Shown here piece by piece: positions 55,145-64,000 of a DNA stretch of 64,000 nt; the stretch's first letter is position 1, and each line of letters begins with the position of its first letter. The position numbers and the translations under genes were made by a program. Under the pieces are notes generated by a model that saw only the letters and a list, made by a program, of their open reading frames with translations, did no database searches and had not been told where the DNA came from. This DNA comes from an uncultured Spirochaetota bacterium (GTDB lineage: Bacteria; Spirochaetota; Spirochaetia; SZUA-6; Fen-1364), in contig CAVTHO010000003.1 in assembly GCA_963734545.1 (NCBI GenBank), positions 192,001-256,000 of the forward strand, given 5' to 3'.

Positions 55145-57427
55145 CTATTCGATTTCCAGAATGAAAAGAGCGTGGTGACCCTCTTTGTCGTCATTCCATT
55201 TCAATGGGTTTCGAAGGTATCGATTTCTGCTGTCCTGCCAGATCAGGGCATAATCCTCAACGCCACCGGCATTGTCAGGCTGATTCACATCCCAATAGGT
55301 AAAATCCGATTTCTCGCCCGTTACCCACTTCCACCCCCGATTCTCATCGGTAAATCCGATCCAGATGTCATCCAGAATGTTTTTCGGTTTTATCGCCTGC
55401 ATCAATGCCTTGTTTTCGGAATCCGAAGTGATGGTGACGAGATGCCCGCCGTTTTTTGCACAGAGGGAAAAGGCGTCTTTCCATGCGAGGCTGCTTTTCG
55501 AAAGGAAGTATTGATGCCCTTCGAAAGCGGCCAGAAAAACAAACTGATCTTCCGGCAATTTGATTTTCTGTATGGGTTCAACAAGCGGCGCACTGCCGGC
55601 CGCCGCGGCTGCCGGGGCTGGAGGTATGAGATCATTCTCCGCGAAGGTGAAAGAGCCAACTTCAGTTTTCCGCAGGTCATTGAAGATATTCGCGTTGCCC
55701 GTCGACTTCTCCCGCGAAGAAGAGCTTGTTGTCGTCCACCCGTATGCTCTCCAGAGCCTCGTGGGCCCCAGGTCGCCAAGACGGCTCTTGATCAAGGCGA
55801 ATGGAACGGCTATTTCAACGGAAGACCCTTTCATGACATATTGTTCCATAATTTCTATTGTCCGAAAGACTGTCTTCTCCCAGACACCAATGAGAACTTG
55901 CCACTTATAGGGGTGACGATCCCAATGCAGTATCCCCACGGAAACATTGTGTTGGCTCTCGCCGGTGTCTATGCTGATGCCGTAGAACGGATTGCCAGGG
56001 TTTTCACTGAAATTGTGAGCATGAAGAAAGGAGCTTGGAGTTTTGTCCGCAATATCAAGCTTGATGCAGAAGCTTTCTGCATCGACAGCCACGCATACCT
56101 TGCTGATGCTCATTTTGTCTGTCGCATCCTGAGAGCCGACTGCTACGGGAGGGACATTCCCCCAATCATCGAAATTCCCATCGATCTTGATCGACGCTTT
56201 GGGCAATGGGGCCCCATTCAGCAGGCTTGAGGGCGGCAGCGTGTTCTTCGCGGCCGCAACAGAAGGAGTCTGACCGGCTTCCGTAGGGAGGTTCTTCGAA
56301 ACCGCTTTTGCGGAACGGCTGAATTCCACGGCTGATGTTTTTCCCATCTTGATCGCGACGGTCTGAGCTGCTTTTTCGCCATCCTCATAGAGCATGACCA
56401 TTTCATGAGGCCCCGCAGCGAGGTTTTCTATTGTCGCGAAAGACCCCACGGGAACCTGCCCCTGCGAGATCCCATCCAGGAACAGCGTCCCGATTGCGTC
56501 GGTCTCCACGGTGGCCGTTCCATATGCCTTTGACACCTTCACTTTGGGGGAGAGCCCTTCTTCACCGGAGGGGTTCTTCGCCGCCAATGCGTGACCGCCA
56601 TCGCTCCTCAGAAACAAGAGGAAGCTCGATCCTTCCTGGTGACCTGAATCTTTCAGGTCCCCGAACAGAGGGGTGGTTTTTGTCACGCCCAGCCGAATCT
56701 GGTTGTAGAGCATGAGCGGGTCCAGATAGGGAGAAGTGTTCCCCTCGAGGGCAAGCTTGAGCTGGCGGATGAAGGGGGACTCGTCGGGAACGGACTCGGA
56801 GGATCCTGAAGTGAGCACCTGCCGCGAGATTCTGGCATATGCATTCTTGAAATACTCGTTTGTGATCGCAGGGGCCATCCCGCGAGTCGGATTCAGGAAA
56901 TCTCCCGAGAAACACGCATCAGCGATCAGCGCGACATGACGGGCCTTCATGTTGCCGATGAACCCTCGAATCTGTGCGTTGGGAAGCCAGTTCGCCTGCG
57001 CGTAGACGTCCGTGCCTCCATCGACAGGGATCCAGAAGCCGGTATTGGACGTTCTGTCCAGCTGCCCGTGTCCCGCGTAGAATATCAGGATGGAATCTTC
57101 AGGCCGCGTGTCTTTGATCAGCCTGTCAAAAAGCTTGATGATGCCGGCTTTTGTCGCCGCTCCGTCATAGAGTTCCATGAAGTCGCTGACGTAGTATCTT
57201 CGGAAAAGGATGTCCTTGATTTCTTTCGCATCCTTGACGGGATTCCGAAGGGCCATCCACGAATCATACTTGTCGATGGCGATCAGCACCGCATACTGCC
57301 TCCCCACAACCGCCGTTTCGCCTTCGAGCTGGCTCACCACGGTTTTCAGGCCGCGAAGATCCGTGTTTTGAGCGAAGAGGGGGAGAGCCAGGAGCGGAAG
57401 GAAGACAAGGGAAAACGATTTTTTCAT
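55145..57427 (-). CDS. Secreted caspase-family (C14) protease with PEGA-like, DOMON/CBM9-like and C-type lectin domains
   Basis: Signal peptide; YAGHG and DACFSG dyad; IKIDGNFDDW; CTLD motifs GGHLVTITS..WIGF..WKW..QPDN..WND. Confidence 0.85.
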   Translation of the reverse strand: MKKSFSLVFLPLLALPLFAQNTDLRGLKTVVSQLEGETAVVGRQYAVLIAIDKYDSWMALRNPVKDAKEIKDILFRRYYVSDFMELYDGAATKAGIIKLFDRLIKDTRPEDSILIFYAGHGQLDRTSNTGFWIPVDGGTDVYAQANWLPNAQIRGFIGNMKARHVALIADACFSGDFLNPTRGMAPAITNEYFKNAYARISRQVLTSGSSESVPDESPFIRQLKLALEGNTSPYLDPLMLYNQIRLGVTKTTPLFGDLKDSGHQEGSSFLLFLRSDGGHALAAKNPSGEEGLSPKVKVSKAYGTATVETDAIGTLFLDGISQGQVPVGSFATIENLAAGPHEMVMLYEDGEKAAQTVAIKMGKTSAVEFSRSAKAVSKNLPTEAGQTPSVAAAKNTLPPSSLLNGAPLPKASIKIDGNFDDWGNVPPVAVGSQDATDKMSISKVCVAVDAESFCIKLDIADKTPSSFLHAHNFSENPGNPFYGISIDTGESQHNVSVGILHWDRHPYKWQVLIGVWEKTVFRTIEIMEQYVMKGSSVEIAVPFALIKSRLGDLGPTRLWRAYGWTTTSSSSREKSTGNANIFNDLRKTEVGSFTFAENDLIPPAPAAAAAGSAPLVEPIQKIKLPEDQFVFLAAFEGHQYFLSKSSLAWKDAFSLCAKNGGHLVTITSDSENKALMQAIKPKNILDDIWIGFTDENRGWKWVTGEKSDFTYWDVNQPDNAGGVEDYALIWQDSRNRYLRNPLKWNDDKEGHHALFILEIE

Positions 57428-57604: not shown

Positions 57605-58606
57605 CTAGAGGTCGGTCACGCCCTTCACGGCAGCCTCGATCTTTTCGATCACCGGGGGCGTCAGCCGGGGCAGCAGATCCATGGCTTTCATGTTCTCTTT
57701 CACCTGCTCGGGCCTGCTCGCGCCGGTGATGACGGTGCTCACATTCGGGTTGTGCGCGCACCAGGCGAGGGCGAGCTGCGCCGTTGTGGCCTTCAGCTCG
57801 TCCGCGATGGGCTGCAGCTTCTTGACGGCCTCGACCAGCGACGGGAGGTAGTCTTTGGCGCCCCCGCCCTTCTGGAGAGGGTCGGCGCGTAGTCCTTCGT
57901 ACCCGGGGAGGGCCAGGCGCGAGTCCTTCGGGACACCGGCGTTGTATTTGCCCGTCAACACGCCGGCGGCCAGCGGGCTCCAGATCGTGAGCCCCAGCCC
58001 GATGCCGGAGTAAAGCCGGGAGTACTGTCGTTCCACTTTGCGCCGCACGAACAGGTTGTACTGGGGCTGTTCCATCTGGGGCTTGTGCAGGTGGTGCTTT
58101 TCCGCGATGCCCCACGCCTCCATGATCTGATCCGCGTTCCACTCCGAGGTGCCCCAGTACAGCGCCTTTCCGGACTCCACCATCATGTGCATGGACCAGA
58201 CCGTCTCTTCGATGGGTGTCTCCGGGTCCGGCCGGTGGCAGAACACCAGGTCGATGTAATCGAGGCCGAACCTCTTGAGTGCGCCGTCGATTCCCTCGCG
58301 CAGCTTCTTGCGGTTGAGCGTGAAACGCTCATTCACCCCGTCGAACATCCCGAAGAAGATCTTGGTGGACACCACGTAGCTTGCGCGCCGCCATCCCAGC
58401 TTGCGCAGGGCGCCGCCCATGACCTCTTCCGACTTGCCCGCCTCGTACGCCTCCGCATTATCGAAAAAGTTCACCCCGGCGTCCCATGCCGCCTTCATGC
58501 AGGCGGCGGCCGCGTCCACGTCGATCTGCTTCCCGTAGGTGACCCACGAGCCGTAGGAAAGGACACTCACCTTGAGACCCGCGCTCCCCAGTCGGCGATA
58601 CTCCAT
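57605..58606 (-). CDS. Aldo/keto reductase (Kv-beta-like)
   Basis: [39 protein letters not shown] and WSPLAAG motifs. Confidence 0.95.
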
Positions 58607-60102: not shown

Positions 60103-60229
60103 GTGCAAAGCCCTCCTCGCATTCTGATATACCGCTCACGCGCGCAGTCGGCAATCGATGAATCCGGGAGGACCGGGCCTGGCAATTCCGCGCTTGATAG
60201 AAACGTCGAATAGTTATTCAAATAAAGCC

Positions 60230-61666
60230 ATGAAGACTCTTGGAATCGGACCCACCATCAGGAAACGTTCGACGCATCCCTACATCGGTCATGAGCCGGT
60301 TTCCACGCCTGAGCAGTCGCGCGAGGCGGTTGCGCTTCTGAACAAGGGGCGGGAGAACGGCCGGGCGGAGGCGGTGGAGGTCACGTACTGGTTCGAGGTG
60401 GTGCACGACGGAAAGCCGATGGCGGGCCTGGTGAACGCGGCCAGGATGGTGCTCGAGCACGGAACGCTCAAGCCGTGGCACCAGGAGGGGGATTCCGCCG
60501 TCCGCAAGCCGGATGGCTACGACGACTACATGAGCTGGGCCACCGACGTGCGCCTGCTGGGCTGGAACGGGACGGAGGGCATGGAGAGCGGGCTGGTGTC
60601 GATTGCCTATCCGTTGAGGTTTTTCGATACAAGGGACGACGGCGGGGTTCCCCTTGCGCCGCTGTTCATGGCCATGGCGAGCGAGCCGTTCTCGGCGTTC
60701 TCCTTCACGCAAGGGGCGCGCATCGTGGACGTCGCATTTCCGCCTGCCCTGCTCGCGCGCTTCCCCCGGCGGCCCTGGCCCCATTCACGAGTCCGCGAGT
60801 ACCTGGGGCTGCAGGCCGATGAGCCTGTCATCGGGACCATCGTGAAGCCCAAGACAGGGCTTACCCCCGAGCTGTTCTCCCGTTCGGTCGTGGAGGCCGC
60901 GCGCGCGGGTGCCCGTTTCACAAAGGCGGACGAGAACATGCATCTCACCCTCGCCGATGTTCCCCGGTTCGTCGGGCGCGTGGTGAAGGACCTCGAAGCG
61001 GCTGGATTCGACCTGGGAAAGTCCGCGTCCCACGGACGGCGGAGGTTCCTCTTCGCGCCTCACATCACGGCGGATGCCGACCGGATGCGCGACTATGCGC
61101 GGGCCGCGGTGGAAGCAGGGGCGAACGCGCTCATGTTCTCCCCCTACTACGGAGGCGGTTTCCCTCTCATGGCCGAAATCGTCGCGACGCACGACGTTCC
61201 CGTCTACGCGCACACGGCGGGCATGAACGTCGCCACGGGCTGCGCGACGTGGGGGCTGGACCCGCGCGTCACCTACTCCCTGGCCGCCCTGTACGGCGCC
61301 GCCTTCATGCAGCTCACCACAATGGGCGGCTACCTCAAGCCGGATGACACGGAGAAAGGGGTTGTTCTGGCCAAGCTGAAGGCTTTGGGGCTGGAGGGCG
61401 ATGCCGGAATGACGCTGGCCATTGCCGGAGGCCTGGGGCCGTCGAATATCGGGCGGAGCATGGAGCTCCTCGGCAGGGAGGGCCGGATGTTCCTGGCAGG
61501 CACGTCGGTCTACAGCCACCCGGACGGTCCTGCCGCAGGCGTGCGGGCGATCATCGCTGCCTATGCGGCATACACGAAAGAAGGGATCACCGACCCCGCG
61601 CAGCTCAGGCAATACGCGGCCGGGCGCGGGGCCGAGGGCAGGGATCTGATGCGGGCGCTGGGATGA
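60230..61666 (+). CDS. RuBisCO-like protein (form IV), divergent
   Basis: GTIVKPKTGL, RFTKADEN, YAHTAG, IAGGL and YSHPDGPAAG motifs; several carboxylase residues substituted; no small subunit or PRK nearby. Confidence 0.88.
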   Translation: MKTLGIGPTIRKRSTHPYIGHEPVSTPEQSREAVALLNKGRENGRAEAVEVTYWFEVVHDGKPMAGLVNAARMVLEHGTLKPWHQEGDSAVRKPDGYDDYMSWATDVRLLGWNGTEGMESGLVSIAYPLRFFDTRDDGGVPLAPLFMAMASEPFSAFSFTQGARIVDVAFPPALLARFPRRPWPHSRVREYLGLQADEPVIGTIVKPKTGLTPELFSRSVVEAARAGARFTKADENMHLTLADVPRFVGRVVKDLEAAGFDLGKSASHGRRRFLFAPHITADADRMRDYARAAVEAGANALMFSPYYGGGFPLMAEIVATHDVPVYAHTAGMNVATGCATWGLDPRVTYSLAALYGAAFMQLTTMGGYLKPDDTEKGVVLAKLKALGLEGDAGMTLAIAGGLGPSNIGRSMELLGREGRMFLAGTSVYSHPDGPAAGVRAIIAAYAAYTKEGITDPAQLRQYAAGRGAEGRDLMRALG

Positions 61667-62655
61667 GCGGACGCCCGGGAACGCCTGAAAAGAGAGAAAG
61701 GCGCATGCCGGACCCCATCGATATCCTGGGGCTCGGCGCCGTCGCGGTCGACGATATTCTCTTCCTGGAGGAGTTCCCGAAGCCTGACGGCAAGTATCGG
61801 GTGATCAGCCGGGAACGACATCCAGGCGGGCTCACGGGTACCGCGCTGGTGGCCGGTTCCCGGCTGGGCAGCCGCTGCGCGTACGCGGGCACGCTGGGCT
61901 CTGACGAGCTCTCGAATTTCGTCAGGGAGAGCCTGTCCGCGGAGGGAGTGTCCGTGGAGCACGTGGTCAGGCAGGAGGGGGCGCTGCCTTTCCGATCGAC
62001 GATAGTGGAAGACAGGGGAGGGAAGACGCGCACCATCCTCTGGGACGCATCCGATGCCATCGGCGCGCACGACTCGCTCCCTGATGAGCGGCTCATCCGA
62101 AGGGCCCGCGTGCTGTTCGTCGACCACGTGGGCGTTGCCGGAATGCTCCGCGCGGCCCGAATCGCCCGGGAGGCCGGAATCCCCGTCGTGGGAGACTTCG
62201 AAGTGCGGCATCCCGCGCCTTTCGACGAGCTCGTCGCCCTGGCAGACCATCTCATTCTTTCGCGGGAATTCGCGGCCGAGCTGACTGGTTCCGTGGACGC
62301 GCGGGCCGCGGCCGAGGCGCTCTGGGATGGCGCTTCTCGCGCGGCAGTGGTCGTGACCATGGGAGCCGAGGGCGCATGGTTCGTGTCGAAGGACCAGCCG
62401 GGAAAGACGCGCTTTCAGCCCGCTTTTGTCGTGGAAGTCGTCGACACGAACGGATGCGGCGACGTGTTTCATGGCGCCTACGCTTCGTGTCTTGTCCGGG
62501 GAATGCCCATGGCCGAGAGGGTGCGGTTTGCCGCGGCAACGGCGGCAATCAAGGCGACCTGCGTGGGCGGCCAGAAGGGCATCCCCACGAGGGGGGAGGT
62601 GGAGCGGTTCCTGCGGGCGCGCAGCAGCGAGGCCCGGAGCTCGGAGGAACCATAG
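61663..62655 (+). CDS. PfkB/ribokinase family carbohydrate kinase
   Basis: HPGG..G, VVVTMGAEG and VVDTNGCGDVFHGAY motifs; ATGA overlap with the RLP stop. Confidence 0.93.
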   Translation: MSGRPGTPEKRERRMPDPIDILGLGAVAVDDILFLEEFPKPDGKYRVISRERHPGGLTGTALVAGSRLGSRCAYAGTLGSDELSNFVRESLSAEGVSVEHVVRQEGALPFRSTIVEDRGGKTRTILWDASDAIGAHDSLPDERLIRRARVLFVDHVGVAGMLRAARIAREAGIPVVGDFEVRHPAPFDELVALADHLILSREFAAELTGSVDARAAAEALWDGASRAAVVVTMGAEGAWFVSKDQPGKTRFQPAFVVEVVDTNGCGDVFHGAYASCLVRGMPMAERVRFAAATAAIKATCVGGQKGIPTRGEVERFLRARSSEARSSEEP

Positions 62656-62746
62656 TCGAGGATCCTCCGCCCGGTTCAGCAGGGCAGCGCGGATCGTTCC
62701 GGCCCGCTGCTTGTTGCGCATTGAGAGTGCCGCTATAATTCGGCGC

Positions 62747-64000
62747 ATGCCGCCCATCATCCGGATGTCTCGCGCCGTGACTGCCCTTATCGTGCTCATG
62801 ACAGCGGCCGCGGGACACGCTGCCGGAGACGCACCCTCGCTTCAGGCCGGCACGATCCAGGTGAGCGACGCGGATCTGAGGAAGACAATCGATCTGGCGG
62901 GCGAATGGGAGCTGTACTGGGGAAGGCTCCTCGACCCGGGGGACTTCAGCGACGGGCTCCCGGCAGGCGGCGGCGCGCCCTGGATCATTCGCGTTCCGAC
63001 ATCCTGGAACGACGTGAGCAACGGCTTCCCGGGAACCGGCTCCGCTACCTATCGCCTTCTCGTGAAGCTGCCGGAGACGACCACGGAGCCCCTGGGACTC
63101 TATCTGAAGAACATCGCCACCGCCTATCGCCTCTTCTGCAACGGCATGCTGATCGCGGAAAACGGCACGGTGTCTTCCCGCATCGACCAGATCCGCGGCA
63201 CGTATGCCGCGCGGACGGTTTTTTTCACGGCACAGGGAAGGCTCGAGATCGTTCTGCAGGTCAGCAACGCGGAGGAAGTCAAGGCAGGCGTGAACACCCC
63301 GCCCCGTCTCGGCTACCAGTCGGCAATCGCGCCCGTGGGAGCATGGGAGATGATTCTCGACGCCATCATCTACGCATTCGTTCTCGCCATGGGCCTCTAC
63401 CACATCCTTCTCTCCATCATCCACCCCGAGGAGAAAGCGTCTCTCTACTTCGGCCTGCTCGCCGTGGACCTCGCGCTGCGCGGCGCGCTGACCGGCTCGC
63501 GGCTCCTCCACCAGTTCGCGGGAAGCTTTGGCTTCCACACCCTCATTGCCCGCGGAGTTCATCACCGTCTACGTGGCAGGGGCCCTCATCTTCCTCTGCT
63601 TCCACCACCTGTTTCCCCGGGAGAGCCCCCATGCGGCACGGATCCCCGTTCTCGCCGTCAGCGGCGCCTACAGCCTTTTCGCCATTCTCGCGCCCATCCG
63701 TGCCATCGTGGCGGTGCACCTCTACTACGAGCTGTTCCTGCTCGCCGAGGGCGTGCTTCTCCTGGTGTGGCTCATCCGGTCCCTCGTTGCGCACCGCGAG
63801 GGCTCGGTTCTCATGCTGGCGGGACTTGTCATCATGCTCGGCGGCGCAACCTACGACATCATCATCGACCAGCTCCACACCTTCGGCATTTTCGTTACCT
63901 CCTATGCCGTGGTGGTATTCATCTTCCTCCAGTCAGCCCTGATCGCGCGGCGGTACGCGCGGGCTTTCACCTCTGCCCGGGACAATCTGAAGATCTCCGA
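62747..64000 (+). CDS. 7TM-DISM sensor protein (extracellular jelly-roll + 7TM), 3'-truncated; +1 frameshift at ~63550
   Basis: MPPIIRM...DLAGEWELYWG..VPTSWND...ATYRL...TAYRLFCNG, then TM helices (GLYH, SLYFGL). Deleting one C at 63549-63551 restores AEFITVYV and further TMs; no stop before the window end. Confidence 0.82.
   Translation, partial: MPPIIRMSRAVTALIVLMTAAAGHAAGDAPSLQAGTIQVSDADLRKTIDLAGEWELYWGRLLDPGDFSDGLPAGGGAPWIIRVPTSWNDVSNGFPGTGSATYRLLVKLPETTTEPLGLYLKNIATAYRLFCNGMLIAENGTVSSRIDQIRGTYAARTVFFTAQGRLEIVLQVSNAEEVKAGVNTPPRLGYQSAIAPVGAWEMILDAIIYAFVLAMGLYHILLSIIHPEEKASLYFGLLAVDLALRGALTGSRLLHQFAGSFGFHTLIARGVHHRLRGRGPHLPLLPPPVSPGEPPCGTDPRSRRQRRLQPFRHSRAHPCHRGGAPLLRAVPARRGRASPGVAHPVPRCAPRGLGSHAGGTCHHARRRNLRHHHRPAPHLRHFRYLLCRGGIHLPPVSPDRAAVRAGFHLCPGQSEDLR

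Follow-up and report, generated by a model that had tools for sequence, protein, structure and literature searches.

The stretch analyzed here (the window) comprises 64,000 nucleotides from an uncultured Spirochaetota bacterium (NCBI GenBank assembly GCA_963734545.1, contig CAVTHO010000003.1, positions 192,001 to 256,000 of the forward strand). Near its 3' end, the window contains a gene for a RuBisCO-like protein (RLP) and, directly downstream on the same strand, a gene for a PfkB-family sugar kinase (Table 1). The ATG of the kinase gene overlaps the TGA of the RLP gene by 4 nt, in the sequence GGGATGAGCGG; this overlap, reported in a first-pass annotation of the DNA, was confirmed by direct reading of the ATGA. 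The longest open reading frame (ORF) for the RLP in the ORF list spans 60158-61666 (+). As many homologues are 478 amino acid residues long and cover 100% of the query from the ATG at 60230, we took this ATG, and not position 60158, as the start. The deduced RLP matched PF00016 (E-value 4.4e-22, 79.1 bits against a cut-off of 30.1). The kinase matched PF00294 (E-value 8.1e-43, 147.3 bits) and has the aspartate of the GxGD motif (D267), which together place it in the PfkB family. No other gene of the RuBisCO family is present in the genome (5.14 Mb, 10 contigs, 89% complete).

Table 1. Features of the RLP-kinase gene pair, with positions in the window and, after the equals signs, residue numbers of RuBisCO or YihV
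Feature	Position	Strand	Basis or remark
RLP gene, 478 aa	60230..61666	+	PF00016 match, 478-aa homologues, AF2 model
HPY motif, invariant H16, P17, Y18	60275..60283	+	N-terminal stretch not aligning with solved RuBisCOs
E152 at the N123 position, candidate acid/base residue	60683..60685	+	Three HMMER alignments, hhalign
KPK motif, K206/K208 = K175/K177	60845..60853	+	HMMER and hhalign; invariant in 14/14 aligned clade members
KADENMH motif, K232 = K201 (putative carbamate lysine), D234/E235 = D203/E204 (Mg ligands), A233 replaces D202	60923..60943	+	Invariant in 14/14
H328-T329...M332 = H294 (kept), R295T, H298M	61211..61225	+	HMMER and hhalign; second-phosphate site neutralized
Q361 (H327Q), loop-6 Y368-L369-K370 (K334Y; K or R two residues on)	61310..61339	+	Alignments
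A399-G400-G401 (S379A, G380, G381) and A423-G424-T425-S426 (G403A, G404, G405T)	61424..61507	+	Backbone phosphate-1 site largely kept
ATGA overlap, RLP stop and kinase start	61663..61666	+	Direct sequence read
PfkB-family sugar kinase gene, 330 aa, ribokinase/sulfofructose-kinase/ketohexokinase-like type	61663..62655	+	PF00294, solved relatives
Kinase GKY motif, K44 = K27 of YihV	61789..61797	+	Alignment to YihV
Kinase DTNGCGD motif, last D (D267) = catalytic D244 of YihV	62443..62463	+	Alignment to YihV

Both the PF00016 match and the predicted fold place the RLP in the RuBisCO superfamily. The AlphaFold2 (AF2) model (pLDDT 84, pTM 0.85) has the two-domain fold of the RuBisCO large subunit, and Foldseek returned RuBisCOs and RLPs with a probability of 1.00 and template modeling (TM) scores of 0.66-0.81. 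The fold search did not discriminate within the superfamily, as form III enzymes and several RLPs were alike in TM score (0.67-0.81); the Thermococcus form III enzyme (3kdo) gave 0.69-0.75 against the RLP model. No curated NCBIfam model came near its cut-off: the scores were 89 (cut-off 497) for form III, the best-scoring model, 68.4 (489) for form II, 79.4 (700) for OiaX, and 61.8 (409) and 36 (513.6) for MtnW. The RLP has no close solved structure; the best solved chain was an archaeal form III enzyme (6hun, 76.8 bits), and the solved Photo- and NonPhoto-type RLPs (1ykw/1tel, 2qyg, and 3nwr) scored only 45-66 bits.

Relatives of the RLP were taken from a metagenome scan (the best 80 of 343) and a genome scan (the best 80 of 282). 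A word-indexed search gave 256 relatives, the best 120 of which are 58-92% identical to the RLP and many of which carry the source label 'ribulose-bisphosphate carboxylase large chain'. Species-representative genomes contained 33 loci at 45-92% identity, and the next matches listed were archaeal form III enzymes at 24-31%. In an exhaustive search of representatives at 50% identity, the clade was followed by unnamed proteins at 33-36%. Phylogenetic trees were built with FastTree (124 rows) and IQ-TREE (LG+G4, short search, 60 rows); both are unrooted, and their groups were labeled by the best NCBIfam match (MtnW, OiaX, form III, or form II), with no named Deep-Ykr, Photo, NonPhoto, GOS, AMC, or Aful references. 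Both trees gave the clade a support of 100% and a stem length of about 0.95 substitutions per site. Its sister in the IQ-TREE analysis was an unnamed group of 6 sequences (support 96), and both joined an unnamed group of 8 (support 98). The clade and the two unnamed groups stand apart from the MtnW-, OiaX-, and form III/II-labeled groups in the trees. At the H327 position, both of these groups (sisA and sisB) also have Q, and both have lost R295; A-G-G occurs in sisA and in some of sisB. Like the clade, neither group has a close solved structure.

From these sequence comparisons, the RLP is a member of the RuBisCO superfamily that belongs to none of the characterized RLP families compared. The first-pass annotation had suggested a possibly new RLP clade, and the analysis agrees, as the protein lies outside the MtnW-like and OiaX-like groups and reaches no NCBIfam cut-off. 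The converse that it had entertained, a place inside a characterized clade, does not hold for the MtnW-like and OiaX-like groups in either tree, Deep-Ykr and the minor clades having no named references there. A 2007 classification reportedly distinguishes the minor RLP clades IV-Photo, IV-NonPhoto, IV-GOS, IV-AMC, and IV-Aful. In the open-access literature searched, we found neither a description of this clade nor a report of an RLP partnered with MtlD, ManA, or PfkB.

According to record titles, 12 of the 33 genome loci are from Spirochaetota. The other carriers are Kiritimatiellota, Lentisphaerae/Lentisphaerota, Omnitrophota, Verrucomicrobiota, Planctomycetia/Planctomycetota, Clostridia/Oscillospiraceae, Ratteibacteria, Aerophobetes/Aerophobota, Firestonebacteria, and Smithella. 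Within the family of the window genome, the distribution is patchy: 10 of 24 relatives, including 8 of 20 from the genus, were found to carry the RLP, against none of 36 genomes from other families of the same order. In one relative from the same family (L032 10001-11439; G021:C7:109854-111292), the RLP was matched in three pieces in different frames at 61-79% identity, which may represent either a decaying copy or an assembly error.

The active-site residues were mapped by three HMMER pairwise alignments to solved RuBisCOs and by an hhalign profile-profile alignment of the clade with form III; both agree. A MAFFT residue map misplaced columns of the N-domain (genuine form III sequences showed G at 'N123'); thus, N123 and E60 were taken from HMMER and hhalign. 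The first-pass annotation had read K175/K177, K201, D203/E204, and H294 as retained, with a KADEN motif in place of KDDE, and had proposed the replacements N123E, R295T, H327Q, K334Y, and SGG to AGG. All of these were found in the new alignments (Table 1), with A233 in place of D202, and H298M was added. The change that it gave as GGG to GTS is better read as A423-G424-T425 (followed by S426), that is, G403A and G405T with G404 kept. Alanine at position 403 also occurs in some form III enzymes. The claim that E60 is kept (in LEHGT) is uncertain because residues 1-116 of the RLP lie outside every pairwise alignment to a solved chain and the profile alignment places H77 in the E60 column. With HMMER, alignment to solved chains begins only at about residue 117. 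The profile alignment to form III extends back to residue 46, is anchored at W83 (= W66), and has E76 one column before the E60 column.

The clade signature consists of KPK, KADENMH, E at position 123, HT, Q at position 327, a Y-x-K/R loop 6, and AGG. It does not vary among 14 aligned clade members. In a second comparison, the pattern was held in 9 of 11 clade members; the two deviations, C at the R295 position in P0123 and F at K334 in P0122, the most divergent representatives, are conservative. E152 is invariant in the 14-member alignment and is also present in these two divergent representatives, and it may act as a catalytic acid/base residue.

It is extremely improbable that the RLP is a working RuBisCO that fixes CO2 on ribulose bisphosphate. 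Although the Mg-carbamate triad and the equivalents of K175, K177, and H294 are kept and form III is the best NCBIfam match, N123, R295, H298, H327, K334, and S379 are all replaced, and the form III score is far below its cut-off. Thus, the RLP does not have the complete set of residues of a bona fide RuBisCO (N123, K175, K177, K201, D203, E204, H294, R295, H327, K334, S379, G381, G403, and G404). The first-pass description of a divergent RLP is supported by the replaced residues and the form III score, and that of a remodeled P2 phosphate site and remodeled carboxylation residues with R295T, H298M, H327Q, and K334Y.

The best solved relative of the kinase was the Escherichia coli sulfofructose kinase YihV (7ag6, 136.5 bits); ribokinases scored 114 bits and below, and ketohexokinases were also listed. 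The kinase did not reach the cut-offs of the ribokinase RbsK models (128 vs 341 and 121.3 vs 299.65), and the NCBIfam sugar-phosphate kinase models (1-PFK/hexose kinase) matched only its C-terminal third (47.8 bits). According to passages of PMC8006165, the product of sulfofructose kinase is a ketose 1-phosphate, and the sulfonate is bound by the triad K27-N109-R138. The equivalents of the sugar-binding residues D13, S95, and K27 of YihV are kept in the window kinase. Only one of the three triad residues is present, as N109 is replaced by L126 and R138 by V156. Over the RLP-linked subfamily, the N109 and R138 positions are hydrophobic or aromatic, with the exception of Arg at R138 in L018. The loss of two of the three triad residues rules out a sulfofructose kinase. 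For the same reason, we rejected a sulfoquinovose pathway, which had been considered from the sulfofructose-kinase match, a weak match to an SftI-like isomerase (60 vs 700), and the presence of split transketolases. As a lead and not as a result, the substrate of the kinase may be a free ketose whose far end is uncharged, with C1 as the probable site of phosphorylation.

To survey the gene neighborhoods of the clade, 34 genome loci and 80 metagenome loci (114 in total) were pooled and merged at 97% nucleotide identity into 89 unique loci. The count covered genes within 6 kb of the RLP and was restricted to the 43 unique loci flanked by at least 1.2 kb on each side. A tblastn search that used just the window kinase as the query detected PfkB in only 7 of 33 loci. 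Because greedy ORF calling in high-GC loci had hidden several genes behind opposite-strand ORFs, the count was replaced by a tblastn recount with several representatives. At least one sugar kinase, dehydrogenase, aldose-ketose isomerase, or C-C cleaving enzyme was present in 37 of the 43 loci. By class, an isomerase-like gene was found in 30 loci, a dehydrogenase in 25, a C-C cleaving enzyme (FBA-II, GatZ, or transketolase) in 18, and a sugar kinase in 16. By gene, the most common neighbors were an MtlD-like dehydrogenase (17 loci), a ManA-type isomerase (14 loci, always directly upstream of the RLP), and URO-D-like genes (14 loci). A PfkB kinase was present in 12 loci, and was adjacent on the same strand in 8. 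A GmhA-like SIS isomerase (9 loci), a split transketolase (9), a GatZ-like gene (8), a glucuronate-isomerase-like gene (6), a FucI/AraA-like isomerase (6), a class II aldolase (5), and an FGGY kinase (5, directly downstream of the RLP in L007 and L106) were also found. A kinase of either type (PfkB or FGGY) adjoins the RLP in 10 of the 43 loci. The setting of the RLP clade is plainly sugar or polyol catabolism, in line with the sugar-phosphate context proposed in the first-pass annotation.

Scores against curated models support some of these labels more than others. The MtlD-like dehydrogenase scored 218-245 bits against the MtlD models, under their cut-offs; the ManA-type gene scored above the TIGR00218 cut-off (142.9 vs 116.2). 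The label 'glucuronate-isomerase-like' rests on ESM Atlas language-model features only (score 0.98 to automatically named clusters). It was given to a 440-aa protein without Pfam or NCBIfam match encoded directly upstream of the RLP in Clostridia loci (L017 8624-9973 and L019 4348-5661). Of the ten genome loci with the upstream ManA-type gene, nine also have an MtlD-like one, and nine come from records of Spirochaetota or Kiritimatiellota. The fullest operon, a low-GC one from a metagenome, contains a GatZ-like gene, both transketolase parts (N and C), two Zn-alcohol dehydrogenases, a short-chain dehydrogenase/reductase, the RLP, PfkB, a URO-D-like gene, a class II aldolase, a FucI-like isomerase, and an FGGY kinase; its aldolase lies in two ORFs of 146 and 116 aa (L165 9482-10305). 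URO-D/MtaA-like proteins often occur several per RLP locus (e.g., L017 5059-6120, L165 8394-9494, and L028 11381-12490), and no corrinoid protein was noticed near them in the RLP loci. A second neighbor in L017 (7519-8619, 366 aa) has no match of any kind.

Two types of PfkB gene are linked to the RLP. A single subfamily (SH-aLRT 100 against four paralogues from the window genome) accounts for 16 of the 19 linked kinases and spans loci with RLPs 45-100% identical to the window RLP. Kinases of this subfamily adjoin the RLP in Spirochaetales, Aerophobetes, and the 45%-identity subclade, and lie within 4 kb of it in Ratteibacteria. The pair is kept between the window and a 92%-identical relative despite differing flanking genes. 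In the window genome and in the genus, the subfamily is single-copy. The second type scored best as a 5-dehydro-2-deoxygluconokinase and more weakly as a 2-keto-3-deoxygluconate (KDG) kinase. The kinase is a recurrent but non-exclusive partner of the RLP.

We tentatively propose, by analogy with characterized members of the superfamily, that the RLP isomerizes or epimerizes a ketose 1-phosphate with an uncharged tail by Mg-dependent enolization; this is a plausible reading that we hold with something short of confidence. We infer carbamylation, the type of reaction, the position of the phosphate, and the order of the two enzymes (kinase, then RLP). The overlapping PfkB kinase would make a ketose 1-phosphate from a free sugar, and this product would correspond to the P-O-CH2-C(=O)-CH(OH) half of ribulose bisphosphate. 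This half would be bound by the kept carbamate lysine, the Mg ligands, the K175 equivalent, and the phosphate-1 glycines. In a dimer-type, Mg2+-dependent RLP, carbamylated K232 would then take the C3 proton next to the keto group, as in the first step of RuBisCO. The residues T, M, Q, and Y would form a neutral pocket where RuBisCO holds the second phosphate, and an uncharged distal end of the sugar could be accepted there. R295 and H327 are likewise missing from MtnW-like RLPs, which act on a substrate with an uncharged tail. With replacements at the residues that serve CO2 addition, hydration, and the second phosphate, the enediolate would merely be re-protonated, giving the 3-epimer or an isomer with a shifted carbonyl. 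RuBisCO itself forms xylulose bisphosphate by mis-protonation. A class II aldolase, transketolase, or hexose-phosphate enzymes might channel the product into central metabolism. In part, this is the earlier proposal of a kinase-made sugar monophosphate and RLP enolate chemistry; the sugar-phosphate neighbors and the kept Mg/carbamate core favor it, and its link to PfkB is only partial.

Several observations weigh against the ketose 1-phosphate reading. The strongest is the abundance of the MtlD-like and ManA-type partners. Because these are enzymes of 6-phosphates, a ketose 6-phosphate fits at least as well as a 1-phosphate. C1 phosphorylation by the kinase is uncertain, since the margin between the sulfofructose kinase and ribokinase scores is modest. 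The reaction type is proposed by analogy, and the E60 equivalent of the RLP is uncertain. None of the sugar genes looked for was present in 6 of the 43 loci. In the window genome (89% complete; tblastn at E 1e-6), ManA-like, DUF4432, glucuronate-isomerase-like (UxaC-like), GatZ-like, SIS, and FucI-like partners were not found. Finally, the five RLP-bearing relatives from the genus that were examined carry an MtlD-ManA-RLP operon, and in all of them the kinase orthologue (56-61% identity) lies apart from the RLP, in varied contexts. The orthologue is also present in four of five genus relatives without the RLP. Thus, the kinase has a function independent of the RLP. Most simply, this function is general and the RLP extends it, the two genes having been brought together in the lineage of the window. 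Kinase orthologues in three relatives have an in-frame TAG or were matched in pieces (G009:C13:71968-72912, G010:C343:1724-2674, and G019:C25:34089-35051).

The independence of the kinase also bears on the possibility that the overlap is an accident of gene order, with a housekeeping kinase next to an RLP that works with the MtlD-like and ManA-type enzymes on hexose or hexitol 6-phosphates. We regard this as unlikely, though it is a serious contender: the single-copy kinase in unrelated contexts, its presence in relatives without the RLP, and the frequent pairing of the RLP with MtlD-like and ManA-type genes would all be expected from it. However, the pair persists between the window and the 92% relative with different flanks, the same kinase subfamily lies near the RLP in Spirochaetales, Aerophobetes, the 45%-identity subclade, and Ratteibacteria, and FGGY kinases occupy the same downstream place in L007 and L106. 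The window genome also speaks against it, as a ManA-like gene of that type was not found there and its only Mannitol_dh relative is 26% identical. The PfkB coupling, which the first-pass annotation took as defining, thus stands in part. One subfamily supplies 16 of the 19 linked kinases and the pair is conserved in the 92% relative, but PfkB lies within 6 kb in only 12 of the 43 loci and the link is absent from all five RLP-bearing genus relatives examined. The homologues are therefore neither generally linked to PfkB kinases nor generally free of them.

A second alternative, that the RLP acts on a phosphorylated keto sugar acid in a decarboxylase- or transcarboxylase-type reaction like the apiose-pathway RLPs, with a carboxylate in the place of the second phosphate, seems to us rather more unlikely. 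OiaX is among the NCBIfam matches, although far under its cut-off, and the glucuronate-isomerase-like protein adjoins the RLP in L017 and L019. Fructuronate and tagaturonate reductases (weak matches) are in the Mannitol_dh family together with the MtlD-like partner, and the second type of RLP-linked PfkB is nearest to 5-dehydro-2-deoxygluconokinase, with KDG kinases weaker. Against this, the clade is apart from the OiaX-like group in both trees, it has lost R295, H327, and K334, all of which OiaX-like sequences keep, and its pocket (T, M, Q, and Y) offers no added positive charge for a carboxylate. The neighbors in the window include no DUF1537 kinase, and the glucuronate-isomerase-like gene was not found in the window genome.

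According to passages of PMC4958253, the Deep-Ykr RLP of Rhodospirillum rubrum converts 5-methylthioribulose-1-phosphate to 1-methylthioxylulose-5-phosphate. A similar function for the window RLP, as an isomerase of 5-methylthioribulose-1-phosphate or 5-deoxyribulose-1-phosphate in the salvage of S-adenosylmethionine by-products, would suit the remodeled pocket, as the substrate is a ketose 1-phosphate with an uncharged tail. The window genome has a bona fide MtnA (TIGR00512, 387.8 bits vs a cut-off of 279), and a cupin-containing gene precedes the RLP in many loci; according to the same passages, a cupin also accompanies the Rhodospirillum RLP. We nevertheless consider this function improbable. 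MtnA is on another contig, and the 114 RLP loci contained no MtnA homologue. As the upstream cupin gene exceeds the cut-off for ManA, it is of the sugar-phosphate isomerase type. The matches to the NCBIfam enolase models fall in the MtnW-like group, of which the clade is not part; the neighbors of the RLP are sugar-catabolic, and seven matches to the class II aldolase/adducin family in the genome could serve the usual salvage routes. The MtnA gene (G000:C9:172014-172904; L178 1471-2691, minus strand) is beside an acyl-CoA ligase gene and a BshC-like gene, the latter apparently split over two frames.

The gene pair stands alone in the window, as the other genes between 51.4 and 64 kb encode, according to Pfam, a TetR regulator, a glyoxalase, an alkaline phosphatase, an EcsC protein, a C-type lectin protein, PrsW, DUF2277, and a 7TMR-DISM sensor, which are unrelated to sugar metabolism. 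The sole exception is an aldo-keto reductase gene 1.6 kb upstream of the RLP on the opposite strand (57605-58606, minus). A related aldo-keto reductase with a fused 4Fe-4S domain is directly upstream of the RLP and divergent in L026 (8696-9838), and the same cluster is also found in L002 and L006 at a greater distance from the RLP; these associations may be due to chance. As stated in the first-pass annotation, neither a methionine-salvage gene nor a DUF1537 kinase was among the Pfam matches of the neighboring ORFs in this 51.4-64 kb region. A promoter and terminator scan found no promoter-like site; two terminator-like matches, one 75 nt inside the kinase gene and one on the opposite strand, were not above the shuffled expectation of 1.5. 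The 7TMR-DISM gene 3' of the kinase is split over two frames (ORF 62426-64000, profile positions 1-44; ORF 63528-63998, positions 70-204), pointing to a frameshift or an error in sequencing near 63.5 kb; this gene is cut off by the end of the window. Upstream of the RLP (55145-57427, minus strand) lies a gene for a 760-aa, secreted-looking protein with a C-type lectin domain at its C terminus, a feature unusual for bacteria; the GC content there drops to 0.53-0.56 from about 0.63 nearby.

RLPs are the main view of the roles of the RuBisCO scaffold besides CO2 fixation. To our knowledge, only a handful of RLP reactions are known, namely an enolase, a 1,3-isomerase, and an apiose-pathway decarboxylase (by its NCBIfam name). 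The present clade is conserved and widespread in anaerobic carbohydrate degraders. With its distinctive active-site signature and a small testable set of two enzymes (kinase and RLP), it is a practical target for a new reaction and a missing sugar pathway. Its description would also set right the automatic annotation of these genes as 'ribulose-bisphosphate carboxylase large chain', which can mislead metagenome surveys of carbon fixation. The further proposal that the RLP is a dedicated ketose-1-phosphate epimerase or isomerase, a new activity in the RuBisCO superfamily serving an undescribed route for a rare or deoxy ketose on a deep RLP branch with two sister groups, is more doubtful. If it is true, the enediolate mis-protonation of RuBisCO has been turned into a main reaction, anaerobic sugar degraders of many phyla share an undescribed catabolic route, and the branch with its two sister groups lies outside current classifications and curated models.

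Among known systems, archaeal form III RuBisCO provides the best curated model and the best solved structures (6hun and 3kdo) and has the same core residues. It differs in its low identity to the RLP (24-31%) and at six catalytic or phosphate-binding residues, and the window RLP has no pentose-bisphosphate pathway neighbors. OiaX and the apiose-pathway RLPs (3-oxo-isoapionate-4-phosphate decarboxylase, by the NCBIfam name) resemble the clade in their sugar catabolic clusters with a kinase and dehydrogenases; they differ in the distant score, the retained R295, H327, and K334, the separate tree groups, and the DUF1537 kinase, which the window neighbors lack. MtnW/YkrW, the 2,3-diketo-5-methylthiopentyl-1-phosphate enolase, shares the fold, the Mg-carbamate core, and the loss of R295 and H327. 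However, the window RLP scores far under the cut-offs of its models, it falls in a separate tree group (support 99), its residues at positions 295, 298, 327, and 334 are different, the long N-terminal part of the window clade does not align, and its methionine-salvage context is missing both at the window RLP and, as judged by MtnA, in the 114 RLP loci. For the kinase, YihV is alike in the GKY motif with K27, the D13 and S95 equivalents, and the catalytic Asp, and unlike at N109 and R138, where the window kinase has L and V. The Deep-Ykr RLP differs from the window clade in that the latter has no MtnA in its loci, a sugar-catabolic context, and a position outside the MtnW-like group (which may include Deep-Ykr, there being no named reference). 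Nevertheless, according to passages of PMC4958253, the Deep-Ykr RLP is a non-carboxylating member of the same superfamily with a cupin-type neighbor that enolizes a ketose 1-phosphate with an uncharged tail, and it is the model for the mechanism proposed here.

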